A stretch of 43,266 nucleotides of DNA, from sequence record MW364973.1. The stretch is one strand, 5' to 3'. Both the position numbers and the translations under genes were made by a program. Shown one piece after another: positions 25,833 to 29,321 of the stretch. Below the pieces are notes generated by a model. It saw only the letters and a program-made list of their open reading frames with translations, searched no databases and was not told the origin of the DNA. Position 1 is the first letter of the stretch. Every line of letters starts with the position of its first letter. This stretch comes from Staphylococcus phage vB_SepS_456.

Positions 25833-25843
25833 AGGTGATTAAT

Positions 25844-27004
25844 ATGAAAATAATAAATAATAATTTTACATTTCACAAAGGTAAAAATTGGATAAATTTA
25901 AGTGGGCTACCAAGGAAGAAAACAAAAAGAGGCGAACAAATTATTTGGAAAAATTCCATAGGTTATAATGTGAATTATTTTTTTGAAGGTATCAGTGGAG
26001 ATATAAAAATATTAGACTCTTACAGGAAAAATGATGAAAGATATTTAAAAGTGGAAGTAAAAAACGAAACATATGAAATACGTTCATCTAACTTCAAAAA
26101 TTGCGAAATAAAGAAAATTGTGACTGATGGTTATAAACATAATTTAGGATTTATTATAAATGGTTGTAAAGTAATTGGTAAAAGACTTAATCCAAGAAGT
26201 AAAGAAAGAGAATATAAAATGTTGTGTCTAAATACAAACTTGACATTTTATAGAAGAGAATCAAGAATAGATGTCGGTGCGCCAAGTCCATACATTAGCG
26301 GTAAATATGTTTATGAAGGAAATTGGTTATACAACGAAAAAAATGTTTTACCTTTTTTAAAAGATGTTAATGATGCAAAAAAATATACAAAGTTCTCAAG
26401 GAGAGAAATAAATTGCGTTTGCCCTAATTGTAAAACTGAAAAAACAACGCCTGTTAATAACTTGGTCCAACAAGGTTTCTTTTGCCACGTATGTTCTACT
26501 AACATATCATATCCAGAAAAATTAATGATTGCTTTATTAAATGAAAATAGTGTAGTTTTTGAATATCAAAAAATATTCCAAGATCTTAAACCCAAAAGAT
26601 TTGATTTTTACTTACCAGAATATAATTTAGTTATAGAAACCCATGGAAAGCAACATTATAAAGAAAACGAAATTTGGTATAGAAAATCTAAGGAATCTGA
26701 TGTTGTAAAAATGAGTTATTGCAAAAAGAAAAACATAAAATATGTTGAAGTGGATTGCAGTTTATCTGATTACAACTTTATAATGAATAACATTAATAAA
26801 ACTGAATTGAAACATGTACTAAAATTATATGACAAAGAAAATATAATAAAAAGAATAAAAGAATTAGAGCAAATAAAAGATGTGGATGAAATAATTAAAC
26901 TATACAAGAATGGTAGAAACCTTACATATATCAGTCGAAATGTTGGATTAACCAAATGGAAAATAGAGGGGCTATTGAAACGTCTGGGATATATTGCACG
27001 CTAA
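25844..27004 (+). CDS. Accessory (moron) protein: N-terminal beta-rich domain, Zn ribbon (CxCxxC..CxxC), Vsr/DUF559-like endonuclease core (RFDFYLPEYNLVIETHGKQHY), C-terminal HTH
   Basis: 386 aa; visibly more AT-rich than its neighbours; own promoter and flanking terminators; sits in the classic moron slot between endolysin and attP/int; motif match to DUF559 (R.DF......L.IE.DG..H) with D->H substitution is by eye only. Confidence 0.5.
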   Translation: MKIINNNFTFHKGKNWINLSGLPRKKTKRGEQIIWKNSIGYNVNYFFEGISGDIKILDSYRKNDERYLKVEVKNETYEIRSSNFKNCEIKKIVTDGYKHNLGFIINGCKVIGKRLNPRSKEREYKMLCLNTNLTFYRRESRIDVGAPSPYISGKYVYEGNWLYNEKNVLPFLKDVNDAKKYTKFSRREINCVCPNCKTEKTTPVNNLVQQGFFCHVCSTNISYPEKLMIALLNENSVVFEYQKIFQDLKPKRFDFYLPEYNLVIETHGKQHYKENEIWYRKSKESDVVKMSYCKKKNIKYVEVDCSLSDYNFIMNNINKTELKHVLKLYDKENIIKRIKELEQIKDVDEIIKLYKNGRNLTYISRNVGLTKWKIEGLLKRLGYIAR

Positions 27005-27240: not shown

Positions 27241-27270
27241 ACCACGTTCTTTATGAGCGTGGTTATTTTT
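27241..27270 (+). terminator. Rho-independent terminator (accacg/cgtggt, 11-nt loop, tattttt)
   Basis: Perfect 6-bp stem 27241-46/27258-63 plus T-run. Confidence 0.5.
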
Positions 27271-27271
27271 A

Positions 27272-27315
27272 CGGAAGTATACACATTAAATATTAATCGA
27301 GTGTCTATACTTCCG
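27272..27315. other. Candidate attP for the serine integrase: 44-bp imperfect inverted repeat (cggaagtata ... tatacttccg) abutting the int 3' end
   Basis: Perfect 10-bp outer arms with further imperfect symmetry inward around an AT-rich centre; serine-integrase attP sites are typically ~40-50 bp quasi-palindromes next to int. Confidence 0.4.
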
Positions 27316-27323
27316 TACATAAG

Positions 27324-28693
27324 TTAATAAAATTCTATATCATTTATTTTGATAGAATGCCTGTTTTTAAGTTTTACATAATCTATGTCAATAGATTTAA
27401 TAGCCATTTTAATAAAATCTGCTTTATCTTCCAACGAGAATATTTTCCATGATTCCAATAATGCATTTTTAAATTTTTTTATCTTATCTATATCTAGTGA
27501 TTTTCTGGGTACTAATTCTTTTTGCTTTTCATATTCTGCTATTGTTTCGTCTGTTTCTTTAATCAATTCAAATAATTCTTCTTCTTGCATTAACCCTTTA
27601 GCATATAATTTATGATACCTTTTACGTTGTTCCATAATCTTGTCTATATCAATAGTAACGACATCGTCTTTTTGTTTTGTCTTTACTTCATATTTATCTA
27701 AGTCTAGTTTAGATAGGTAATCACGAAACACTCTCAATGCTTCATTCTCTGAAAAACCGAAACTTTGTTTTTTAGTTTTACATGTGTTGCAATAATATGT
27801 TTTATAAGTAACATACCCTTTCTTTCTCTTTCTTGTTGCTGTGTTCATTGTTAATGTGCCACCACATCTCGGACAAATAAATTTACCTCTGAACACTGAT
27901 ACGTGACTGACTATTTTAGTATTGATTCGTTCTTCTAGCCTTTCTTTTATTTGTTGATACATTTCTTCGGTAATAATAGGCTCGTGAGAGTTTTCTATAA
28001 ATACATCTCCCCAAGTATAATGACCTCTTGTTATAGGGTTTCTTAGCGCTCTCGTTATTGTTCTATCTTCCCACCTTTTGCCATTAGGAGGTGGTATATC
28101 TGAATCGTTTAATTTTCTAGCTATAGCTTTTGAACTATTACCTTTCATCACTTCGTCATATGCCCATAAAACTACTTTTTTATAATCATTAGGAATGTAA
28201 GTGTTATCTACACGATCATAATAAAAGGGTGGTGGTGTGAGTATCATACCTTGTTTAATCGCTGCGCGTTTACCCATCATAACACGCTCTCTAATGGTTT
28301 CTCTTTCCCACTCTGCCATAGCACCAACTAACGTAACAAACAGTCTACCCATAGCTGTAGATGTATCATAAACTTCAGTAGCACTTCTGAATGCTACGTT
28401 ATTCTGTTCGAATACCTCTAATAAATCAAGTAGATCACGCACATTACGTGTAAGCCTGTCTAACTTATACACTAAAACTAAATCAAACCGTTTAATATCA
28501 TTCATCATACGTTGTAATTCCGGTCTGTCACGCTTAGCGCCAGAGAAACCAGCGTCGATAAATACGTCTGATACACTCCAGTCGTTTATCTCGCAAAATG
28601 ATTTGAGCTTTCTTTCTTGTTCTTCAATAGAATAACCATGTTCTTTTTGTTCTAATGTACTGACCTGACACGAACGTAAATAGCTACGTTCAT
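27324..28693 (-). pseudogene. int: Large serine recombinase (integrase) disrupted by a 5-bp tandem duplication (+ strand CTGAC CTGAC, 28660-28669) just before the catalytic Ser codon
   Basis: Native ATG 28693 (RBS aaggggtg, 7-nt spacer) gives MNVAIYVRV then shifts to RSVH* (stop 28652-54). The body frame (..QVSTLEQKEHGYSIEEQ.., C-terminal CPRCGG..CNTC zinc ribbon) is otherwise intact. Removing one GTCAG copy restores MNVAIYVRVSTLEQ. Confidence 0.75.
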
Positions 28694-28754
28694 AATTCAT
28701 CACCCCTTAAAAAAGTAAAAAAATAATAAGGGTAGGCAAGCTACCCATGAATTA

Positions 28755-29321
28755 TTATATTTTTCCGTCCCACGCCTCATTTGCCACTCCATTTGTAGTT
28801 GAACGTGGTAATGGTTCTTTAAAACTTCTACGATCTACACCTTGATTTTGATTATTTTGCGGTACTTTCTCCATTTGTGACTCATTGTGAGTAGTTGTTT
28901 TCGTTCTATTCCATTCGTCAATTTCTGATTGGGTCATGTAACCATTATTATTTTGCATTTGTTGGTTGTTATTAGCTTGTTGCTGATTGTTTTTTTGTTG
29001 TGTTGCTTGAGCTTGTTTACCTTGTGATCGTTCATTATTACCATTATTACTTTGAGTTTTGCTATTGTCATTTTTAGATGTGCTTTCAGATTTATTGCTA
29101 GTAGTATCATTGTTAATACCATCTGAACTAGATTGTTGTTTATCGTCATTAGTGTTTTTGTTTGATTCATTCTTACTATCTGATTTCTTCGGACCATTCG
29201 ACTTCTTATCTGATTTACTTTCAGACTTCTTATTATCATCTTTATTCGAGTTATCCCCATTTTGTCCACATGCACCTAATACTAATAAGCTTGCAAATAT
29301 TAAAAATAAAACCTTTTTCAT
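28755..29321 (-). CDS. Lipoprotein with long disordered Ser/Asn/Gln/Lys-rich low-complexity region
   Basis: 188 aa; signal peptide plus lipobox LVLGAC at residues 13-18; >120 residues of low complexity; between int and immA-like gene. Confidence 0.7.
   Translation of the reverse strand: MKKVLFLIFASLLVLGACGQNGDNSNKDDNKKSESKSDKKSNGPKKSDSKNESNKNTNDDKQQSSSDGINNDTTSNKSESTSKNDNSKTQSNNGNNERSQGKQAQATQQKNNQQQANNNQQMQNNNGYMTQSEIDEWNRTKTTTHNESQMEKVPQNNQNQGVDRRSFKEPLPRSTTNGVANEAWDGKI

Follow-up and report, generated by a model that had tools for sequence, protein, structure and literature searches.

A conserved 5-bp duplication before the catalytic serine codon of the integrase gene of Staphylococcus phage vB_SepS_456: a possible short translational hop or an atypical N-terminus

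Staphylococcus phage vB_SepS_456 (MW364973.1; its 43,266 nucleotides are the whole stretch analysed, here called the window) belongs to the genus Rockefellervirus and is a siphovirus of Staphylococcus epidermidis. It has an open reading frame (ORF) for a large serine recombinase, the phage integrase (int, 27324..28700 as annotated, minus strand, TAA stop at 27326-27324), with Resolvase, Recombinase and zinc-ribbon domains. This gene carries a 5-bp tandem duplication which separates the start of the canonical protein from its catalytic serine. The duplication exists, is conserved and is portable between integrase genes, phages possessing it integrate and occur as prophages, and the recombinase bodies that follow it are intact and under constraint. 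The integrase gene is thus, with high confidence, functional. As to how its product is made, we tentatively favour, at somewhat short of an even chance for the full reading, initiation at ATG 28693 followed by a +5 translational hop across the insertion, with leader and insertion serving as a translational attenuator. The feature would then be a natural short-range hop; otherwise it would be an atypical serine recombinase N-terminus.

On the minus strand the 5′ region of int reads ...AAGGGGTGATGAATTATGAACGTAGCTATTTACGTTCGTGTCAGGTCAGTACATTAGAACAA... and contains the tandem GTCAG GTCAG (GTCAGGTCAG, 28669-28660; plus strand CTGACCTGAC, 28660-28669). There are two candidate ATG codons ahead of it. 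The upstream one (28698..28700, minus strand; ATG1) gives MNYERSYLRSCQVSTLEQ..., a protein of 458 amino acids, and is the start chosen by all database annotations (a coding sequence of 1377 nt); the frame of 459 amino acids reported by the ORF tool begins at GTG 28703 and is the same frame. The downstream one (28691..28693, minus strand; ATG2) is ancestral and is probably the real start. From ATG2 the frame gives MNVAIYVRVRSVH and then meets TAG (28654-28652), and this short ORF (28652..28693, minus strand) would be the default product of ribosomes which start at ATG2 and stay in frame. The codons concerned are GTC (Val9, 28669-28667) and AGG (28666-28664), the latter overlapped by the second GTC (28664-28662), after which comes AGT for the catalytic serine (28661-28659). 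When one copy of GTCAG is removed MNVAIYVRVSTLEQ is restored, and the repaired protein has 454 amino acids with the N-terminus MNVAIYVRVSTLEQKEHGYSIEEQ.

Repeats of this size are unremarkable by themselves, as the window has 29 5-bp tandem repeats with at least three different bases, and the significance of this one comes from its position and from comparison. Alignment of the 5′ ends of all retrieved relatives shows a single GTCAG in phages StB20 (S. capitis), StB27 and StB12 (S. hominis), where the readout is MNVAIY[V/C]RVSTLEQ, and the loci L050, L052 and L056 are also single-copy. With one copy in the outgroups StB20, StB12 and StB27, the second is a genuine and derived duplication. A first-pass annotation of the window had described a 5-bp tandem duplication directly before the catalytic serine, which breaks the canonical frame from ATG 28693 one codon ahead of that residue and whose deletion repairs it; this description stands. 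With regard to the StB20 gene itself (JN700521.1, 97-1401), its body has 425 rather than 445 codons and a differing C-terminal tail (...SLRWPLSLST), suggesting a frame change near the 3′ end of the record, while the metagenomic StB20 look-alikes L050, L052 and L056 have the full 445 codons.

Besides the window, 11 related S. epidermidis phage records were examined, and every one of them has the insertion. Retrieved relatives with GTCAGGTCAG are CNPH82, CNPx, PH15, phiIPLA7, IME1348_01, BE20, PG-2021_93, HOB 14.1.R1, 27, 48, 459, and E72, and every annotated relative record has the 1377-nt coding sequence from the upstream ATG; identity of the int region to that of CNPH82 is 99.8%. Pattern scans of IMG/VR and of a metagenome collection, taken together with phage records and protein-derived contigs, gave 87 staphylococcal carriers overall (phage, prophage and metagenome) with eight leader haplotypes. 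In these the first copy and the AGG codon are invariant and the second copy varies only at its Val wobble position (GTC, GTG, GTT). An error of sequencing or assembly, the true sequence having a single CTGAC, would account for the duplication without any biology, but the chance of this is negligible given that the same ten bases recur in independent projects from 2006 to 2023, among them the Sanger-era genomes of CNPH82 and PH15, Illumina phage genomes, isolate genomes and metagenomes.

The occurrences are confined to no single recombinase. A protein database cluster of 458-amino-acid sequences (P0001, S. epidermidis) has 1,065 members, and the leader with its insertion is found on at least five recombinase bodies, with body identities to the window of 84% (P0002), 81% (P0003), 70% (P0007), 69% (P0008), and 42% (P0044, 824 members). 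In P0008 and P0044, similarity to the window stops at the catalytic serine codon. The P0007 allele (L045-L047) has a CNPH82-type leader and insertion as a patch of about 45 nt, set between an upstream region like that of StB12 and a body like those of StB27 and StB12; this patch resembles a very short gene-conversion tract, with its 3′ end just beyond the catalytic serine codon. In a neighbour-joining tree of 60 unique 445-codon bodies, the single-copy L050, L052 and L056 are nested within the diversity of the carriers. Single-copy alleles inside the carrier tree, together with the same leader on bodies of only 42-70% identity, indicate that the leader (Shine-Dalgarno, ATG, MNVAIYVRV, GTCAG GTNAG) behaves as a cassette that is moved by recombination among staphylococcal phage integrase genes. 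Dating of the duplication by the divergence of carrier alleles was abandoned on account of this recombination.

Candidate occurrences outside the staphylococci were rejected. High-GC metagenome matches that read QVSTLEQ were short unrelated ORFs, and 13 of the 14 matches in species-representative genomes were due to chance, with the remaining one a probable contaminant. An exact staphylococcal leader and insertion are seen in NZ_JBHLXP010000009.1 (L135, “Rheinheimera tilapiae”) and in P0002 (labelled Pseudomonas aeruginosa), most likely through contamination with Staphylococcus DNA.

That the gene works is supported from several directions. PMC8125051 (Fisarova et al., 2021) reported lysogenisation of strains SE27, SE48, SE456, SE459 and 1457 with phages 27, 48, 456, 459 and E72, all at one site, and gave the attL of the phage 48 lysogen. 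Four of these five phages were inspected (27, 48, 459, E72); all four possess the insertion, and the source field of their GenBank records is “induced prophage”. The records of 27 and 459, by these authors, have the same first base as the window. The intact attP of the window has one mismatch to the phage half of the published attL. The carrier prophages L018, L019, L025 and L035 have the junction ...GATTAATAT followed directly by CGGATGTATACC.ACTA, the reverse complement of the published attL, and the same attL junction is found in a 152-kb S. epidermidis contig (L132), where int abuts a Pyr_redox_2 oxidoreductase gene. Carriers are therefore found integrated at the expected attB and the window has the cognate attP beside its gene, with the laboratory evidence of integration coming from the sibling phages.

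The bodies are equally well preserved. Of the carrier bodies that reach a stop, 70 of 72 have the complete length, with 445 or 452 codons following the serine, while the other two have premature stops (at 314 and 301 codons), either from true decay or from assembly errors. Ten distinct carrier alleles from phage records have pairwise synonymous divergence (dS) of up to 0.35 and ratios of nonsynonymous to synonymous divergence (dN/dS) of 0.03-0.09, with no indel or stop in the 445 codons; given that the cassette moves by recombination, though, this divergence and constraint may largely predate its acquisition. In the window, Pfam detects the Resolvase domain PF00239 (E-value 3.1e-41 for the annotated protein, 6.7e-45 for the repaired one), the Recombinase domain PF07508 (78.1 bits) and the zinc ribbon PF13408 (23.6 bits, slightly below the 25.3 cut-off). 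Cysteines C276, C279, C304 and C307 of the zinc ribbon, whose codons lie between 27875 and 27780, are invariant in 61 aligned homologs. The ORF beyond the duplication is intact with its zinc ribbon, just as the first-pass annotation had it.

That annotation had also considered the integrase inactivated and the lesion recent, and neither view survives. A recently inactivated pseudogene in a phage unable to integrate would fit a canonical frame broken one codon before the catalytic serine and an annotated N-terminus without the canonical beta1 strand and Arg spacing. Yet the insertion is fixed in the clade and sits on several bodies, most of them intact and with low dN/dS, while carrier prophages lie at the correct attB and carrier phages lysogenise site-specifically and were obtained by prophage induction (PMC8125051). 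Neither relaxed constraint or decay after the lesion nor loss of the integration phenotype was found. For the sibling phages this explanation is already refuted, and overall it is highly improbable; the shared insertion, intact bodies, attB-integrated carriers and laboratory lysogens together make an inactivated gene with a recent lesion untenable, and the presence of the same insertion in 11 related phages and on bodies of 42-70% identity likewise contradicts recency.

Tandem duplications can revert by slippage, and the nesting of the single-copy L050, L052 and L056 in the carrier tree could be taken to mean that a small subpopulation loses one copy and that only such revertants integrate. 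We consider such switching at the DNA level very unlikely, because prophages, whether integrated or induced, retain both copies, so that the second would need to be regained after each integration. Moreover, among the 64 complete 445-codon carrier alleles there was no CNPH82-type body with a single copy.

The Shine-Dalgarno sequence GGGGUGAU (28699..28706, minus strand; variants GGAGUGAU and GGAGGUGAU in relatives) is 8 bp in length and, as GGGGTGAT, overlaps ATG 28700. Its aligned spacing is 2 nt to that codon and 9 nt to ATG 28693, compared with a modal spacing of 6-9 nt for those phage 459 genes whose Shine-Dalgarno sequence is clear. The pairing runs through ...GUGAU and takes in the A and U of the upstream ATG. 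Single-copy StB20-type genes have an identical arrangement of Shine-Dalgarno and ATG2, and in these ATG2 is necessarily the start, with ATG1 already present out of frame in their leaders. All Shine-Dalgarno variants keep their register to ATG2, and none of the 87 carriers has moved the Shine-Dalgarno sequence or lost ATG2. From the spacing and the usage in single-copy StB20-type genes, most ribosomes should start at ATG 28693 and so make a 13-residue peptide. The real start is accordingly probably ATG 28693, to judge by its sequence context, and the earlier proposal that it has a proper ribosome binding site while the upstream start has no usable spacing agrees with these measurements.

The protein that would result from standard decoding at ATG 28700 also differs from the family where the family is most conserved. 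Aligned to the Pfam Resolvase profile, the repaired protein matches from profile position 1 (153.2 bits), whereas the annotated protein matches only from residue 13, corresponding to profile position 7 (141.3 bits), with residues 1-12 unaligned. Residues Y6, R8, V9 and S10 are invariant in all 72 canonical homolog representatives. At the end of beta1 in the window, the Y-x-R-x-S motif is not encoded contiguously: the 5-nt insertion puts its parts into two frames, and only the product of a hop would have it whole. Positions -2 and -4 relative to the serine are Gln and Ser in the annotated frame, and compared to the canonical protein there is a replaced, more polar start of beta1 with S-C-Q inserted between the Arg and Val-Ser. 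The Y7-L8-R9 that this frame keeps is fortuitous, as it arises from a 4-nt quasi-repeat, TATTTACGTTCGT. AlphaFold2 gave predicted local distance difference test (pLDDT) values for the first three 10-residue blocks of 61/51/68 for the annotated protein against 89/77/88 for a canonical control, and a beta1 of five residues against eight, although this difference carries little weight, as canonical sequences make up most of the alignment. The first-pass annotation was therefore right that the N-terminus from the upstream start is non-canonical and lacks the canonical beta1 and Arg spacing.

It is nevertheless possible, if on balance doubtful, that the functional enzyme is this protein of 458 amino acids, the duplication being tolerated because the shifted frame is open and mimics YxR. 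No unusual translation is needed for this, and every annotation assumes it. It requires the coincidences of a Y-L-R mimic and of a frame open from ATG1, and both are present in 87 of 87 carriers; the five amino-acid changes seen in this frame all lie outside Y7-L8-R9 and V13-S14, and AlphaFold2 models S6-S10 as a short beta1 with the catalytic serine still at a helix N-terminus. On the other hand, ATG1 is within the Shine-Dalgarno duplex at a spacing of 2 nt, and no carrier has shifted that sequence or dropped ATG2. The R-x-S and Y-x-R-x-S spacings are invariant in the 72 canonical homologs, and in Tn3 resolvase the substitutions R8A, R8K, Y6A and Y6F each lowered cleavage by at least 5,000-fold and abolished recombination in vivo (PMC2794168, Table 2), so that even R8K and Y6F kill activity. 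In addition, the invariant hydrophobic V3 and I5 become Glu and Ser (Arg in the S6R haplotype), C11R adds a charge beside the active site, and the pLDDT of the residues that the Pfam profile leaves unaligned is 51-61.

The preferred reading, a hop in the ATG2 frame, depends on the geometry of the repeat. The ATG2 frame is +1 relative to that of the body, so a movement of -1, +2 or +5 is required to join them. By direct reading of the sequence, +5 is the only shift from Val9 or the neighbouring Arg codons that permits the P-site tRNA to re-pair; shifts of -1, +1 and +2 from these codons were rejected for lack of such re-pairing, and termination followed by reinitiation was rejected as the catalytic serine or beta1 would be lost. 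The first base of the repeat coincides with the start of a codon in the ATG2 frame, that of Val9, which produces matched GUC codons at 28669-28667 and 28664-28662. Take-off and landing codons are thus read by the same tRNA and do not overlap, as hopping demands, and across the 87 carriers the landing codon is always one for Val (GTC, GTG, GTT). The A-site codon, AGG, is rare in the host, with one in 1,516 flanking codons (0.7 per 1000). Across the variants the stop of the short frame lies one to four codons past AGG, and in GTG-variant carriers the short ORF ends earlier, as MNVAIYVRVR and a stop. Hops between matched codons over slow-to-decode or stop codons, +5 included, have been established in E. 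coli constructs, although natural short-distance hops are very scarce (PMC5009743, a review).

The events proposed for int would be as follows. The Shine-Dalgarno sequence would bring ribosomes to the ancestral start ATG 28693, and the majority would translate MNVAIYVRV-R-S-V-H and then terminate. In a minority, while the host-rare AGG occupied the A site, the peptidyl-tRNA(Val) would detach from GUC in the P site and re-pair with the identical Val codon 5 nt downstream. Decoding would restart at AGU, the codon of the catalytic serine, to give the canonical MNVAIYVRVSTLEQ... enzyme at a low level. A nine-codon leader with beta1, Tyr6 and Arg8 would in this manner be joined to a body starting at the catalytic serine, the insertion would act as a translational attenuator of the integrase, and such attenuation may stabilise lysogeny. 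Recoding that yields full-length integrase, which the first-pass annotation had listed as an outcome contrary to its own conclusion, has become the leading hypothesis, albeit one held tentatively. The predicted diagnostic peptides are MNVAIYVRVSTLEQK for the hop product and MNYERSYLRSCQVSTLEQK for the upstream start.

A number of observations weigh against the hop. Spontaneous hops usually occur at about 1% or less. Among the codons of the phage AGG is not particularly infrequent (3.06 per 1000), and there are five AGG codons in the int body itself. No stimulatory RNA structure was found, the fold of 28600-28725 having a non-significant z of -0.95. An open annotated frame from the upstream ATG that keeps Y7-L8-R9 is a set of coincidences with no role in hopping. 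The body divergence and dN/dS, which as mentioned may be older than the cassette in its present genes, and a very low leader diversity of about six substitution events, with little statistical power, are further weaknesses. As both the hop and the upstream start are proposals that need low-efficiency steps, some other route such as a different recoding event or supply of integrase in trans from a resident element could be considered. It is unlikely, since no other shift lets the tRNA re-pair and supply in trans fails to explain intact, constrained ORFs on five bodies and five host strains lysogenised at the same site.

With regard to the role of RNA structure in bypass, the sole good hairpin near the insertion is a predicted 11-bp stem (UAUGAACGUAG / loop CUAU / UUACGUUCGUG; 28669..28694, minus strand) which surrounds ATG2 and reaches as far as the first base of the take-off codon. 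As a bypass stimulator it is unsupported: it is located 5′ of the site, would by the time of take-off be within the ribosome and is shared with single-copy relatives, its sequence being present in StB20-type leaders and so not peculiar to genes with the insertion. It may dampen int translation in general, or be due to chance.

Variation among the leaders bears on which frame is read. Two changes at one site, A to T and A to C, fall in the spacer between Shine-Dalgarno and ATG2 but give N2Y and N2H in the annotated frame. An A to G change is N2D in the ATG2 frame, at a position that is variable in the family, and E4G in the annotated one. A C to G change is A4G in the ATG2 frame, where position 4 is A in 43 homologs, G in 29 and nothing else, and S6R in the annotated frame. 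Finally, T to C is synonymous for Arg8 (CGT to CGC) in the ATG2 frame and is C11R in the annotated frame. Thus all five changes alter an amino acid in the annotated frame (N2Y, N2H, E4G, S6R, C11R), while one is synonymous in the ATG2 frame. A change of CAG to CAA, which would be synonymous in the annotated frame and turn AGG into AAG, was never seen in the 87 carriers, whereas the adjacent Val wobble position changed at least twice; CAA is the preferred Gln codon over CAG both in the host (47:10) and in the int body (11:1). The variation leans to the ATG2 frame being the one read, but is suggestive only, as with some six substitution events the argument is statistically weak.

Several known systems share features with this arrangement. 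Canonical staphylococcal integrases (StB20, StB12, StB27, and clusters P0005 and P0009-P0025) have the same Resolvase, Recombinase and zinc ribbon architecture and bodies of 67-95% identity, and the StB20-type genes have a Shine-Dalgarno sequence and leader identical to those of the window. The window gene has attP directly after it, and differs in that five extra bases part the beta1/Arg8 segment from the catalytic serine onward, where canonical genes are read straight through. The hops described in E. coli constructs (Weiss, Dunn, Atkins and Gesteland, 1987, for +5 and +6, and bypassing at hungry codons; via PMC5009743) also have matched, non-overlapping P-site codons and a nearby zero-frame stop, and their slow A-site codon would have its counterpart in the AGG of int. 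These were synthetic or over-expression systems, however, whereas the int arrangement is natural, occurs in 87 sequences and lies in an essential part of a working gene, its hop being predicted from sequence.

In phage T4 gene 60, two coding segments are joined, as they would be in int, by take-off and landing on matched codons, and the insert is linked to mobility between genes. Its bypass covers a 50-nt gap with high efficiency, with a stop after take-off, a nascent-peptide signal and mRNA structures, unlike int with its 5-nt gap, sense A-site codon and no stimulators found. The G-run “savior” indel of herpes simplex thymidine kinase (PMC5009743) is a frame-breaking indel kept, as that of int would be, through low-level non-standard decoding, but there a ±1 shift on a homopolymer is selected by drug, while for int a +5 hop is proposed and no selective agent is known. 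The IS1 and IS3 transposases with their programmed -1 frameshifting (partly PMC5009743) would resemble int in that the recombinase level is held low by rare recoding. They use slippery heptamers to fuse two long ORFs; in int the upstream segment would be nine codons only and would be joined by a hop.

Under either the hop or the upstream start, only a small fraction of ribosomes would make integrase, and the insertion should strongly attenuate its synthesis. The lack of a single-copy CNPH82-type revertant together with the spread of the cassette to other bodies suggests that selection does not, at the least, act against low expression, which may stabilise lysogeny. Literature searches on the integrases of these phages and on serine recombinase recoding found no earlier account of the duplication, and genome papers describe the protein simply as a serine-type integrase. 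If the hop is true, it would be among very few natural short-distance translational bypasses in bacteria and phages and the first in a site-specific recombinase, a tractable system with lysogeny as an easy read-out and a new means for a temperate phage to set its integrase dosage. If instead the annotated protein is active, it would be a serine recombinase tolerating three residues between the catalytic Arg and Ser as well as a largely replaced beta1, which would contradict resolvase mutagenesis and be relevant to the engineering of serine integrases. In practical terms, more than 1,000 database entries (those of P0001 on their own reach this figure) probably have a wrong or at least unverified N-terminus, and an integrase synthesised from the annotation as a genome-engineering tool may be inactive.

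The attP site (ACGGAAGTATACACATTAAATATTAATCGAGTGTCTATACTTCCGT, 27270..27316) is 7 nt from the int stop and has a crossover core ATATTAAT (27290-27297) flanked by imperfect inverted repeats. On the other side of the gene, directly 5′ of the Shine-Dalgarno sequence, is a conserved staphylococcal int-upstream region of 38 nt (GGGTAGCTTGCCTACCCTTATTATTTTTTTACTTTTTT, 28709..28746, minus strand) consisting of a GC hairpin and then a T run. Tao et al. (2010; PMC2869324) described a conserved 40-bp region with the sigmaH-dependent int promoter in S. aureus prophages and named CNPH82 and PH15 as having it, and 28709-28746 is the apparent counterpart, with promoter function in vB_SepS_456 suggested by this analogy. 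The same sequence also resembles an intrinsic terminator, by its hairpin and T run, for the ORF upstream.

That ORF (28755-29321, minus strand) would encode a protein of 188 amino acids with a lipoprotein-type signal peptide and lipobox MKKVLFLIFASLLVLGAC and, after these, a low-complexity region rich in N, Q, S and K. In relatives its position is occupied by other genes, for a DUF5067 protein or a hypothetical protein of 160 amino acids, and it is a variable slot in the lysogeny module, possibly with a role in superinfection exclusion. Between the lysis genes and attP, the usual place of lysogenic-conversion genes, lies an ORF of 389 amino acids (25835-27004, plus strand), which is annotated as “endonuclease” in phages 27 and 459, with unrelated small genes there in other relatives.

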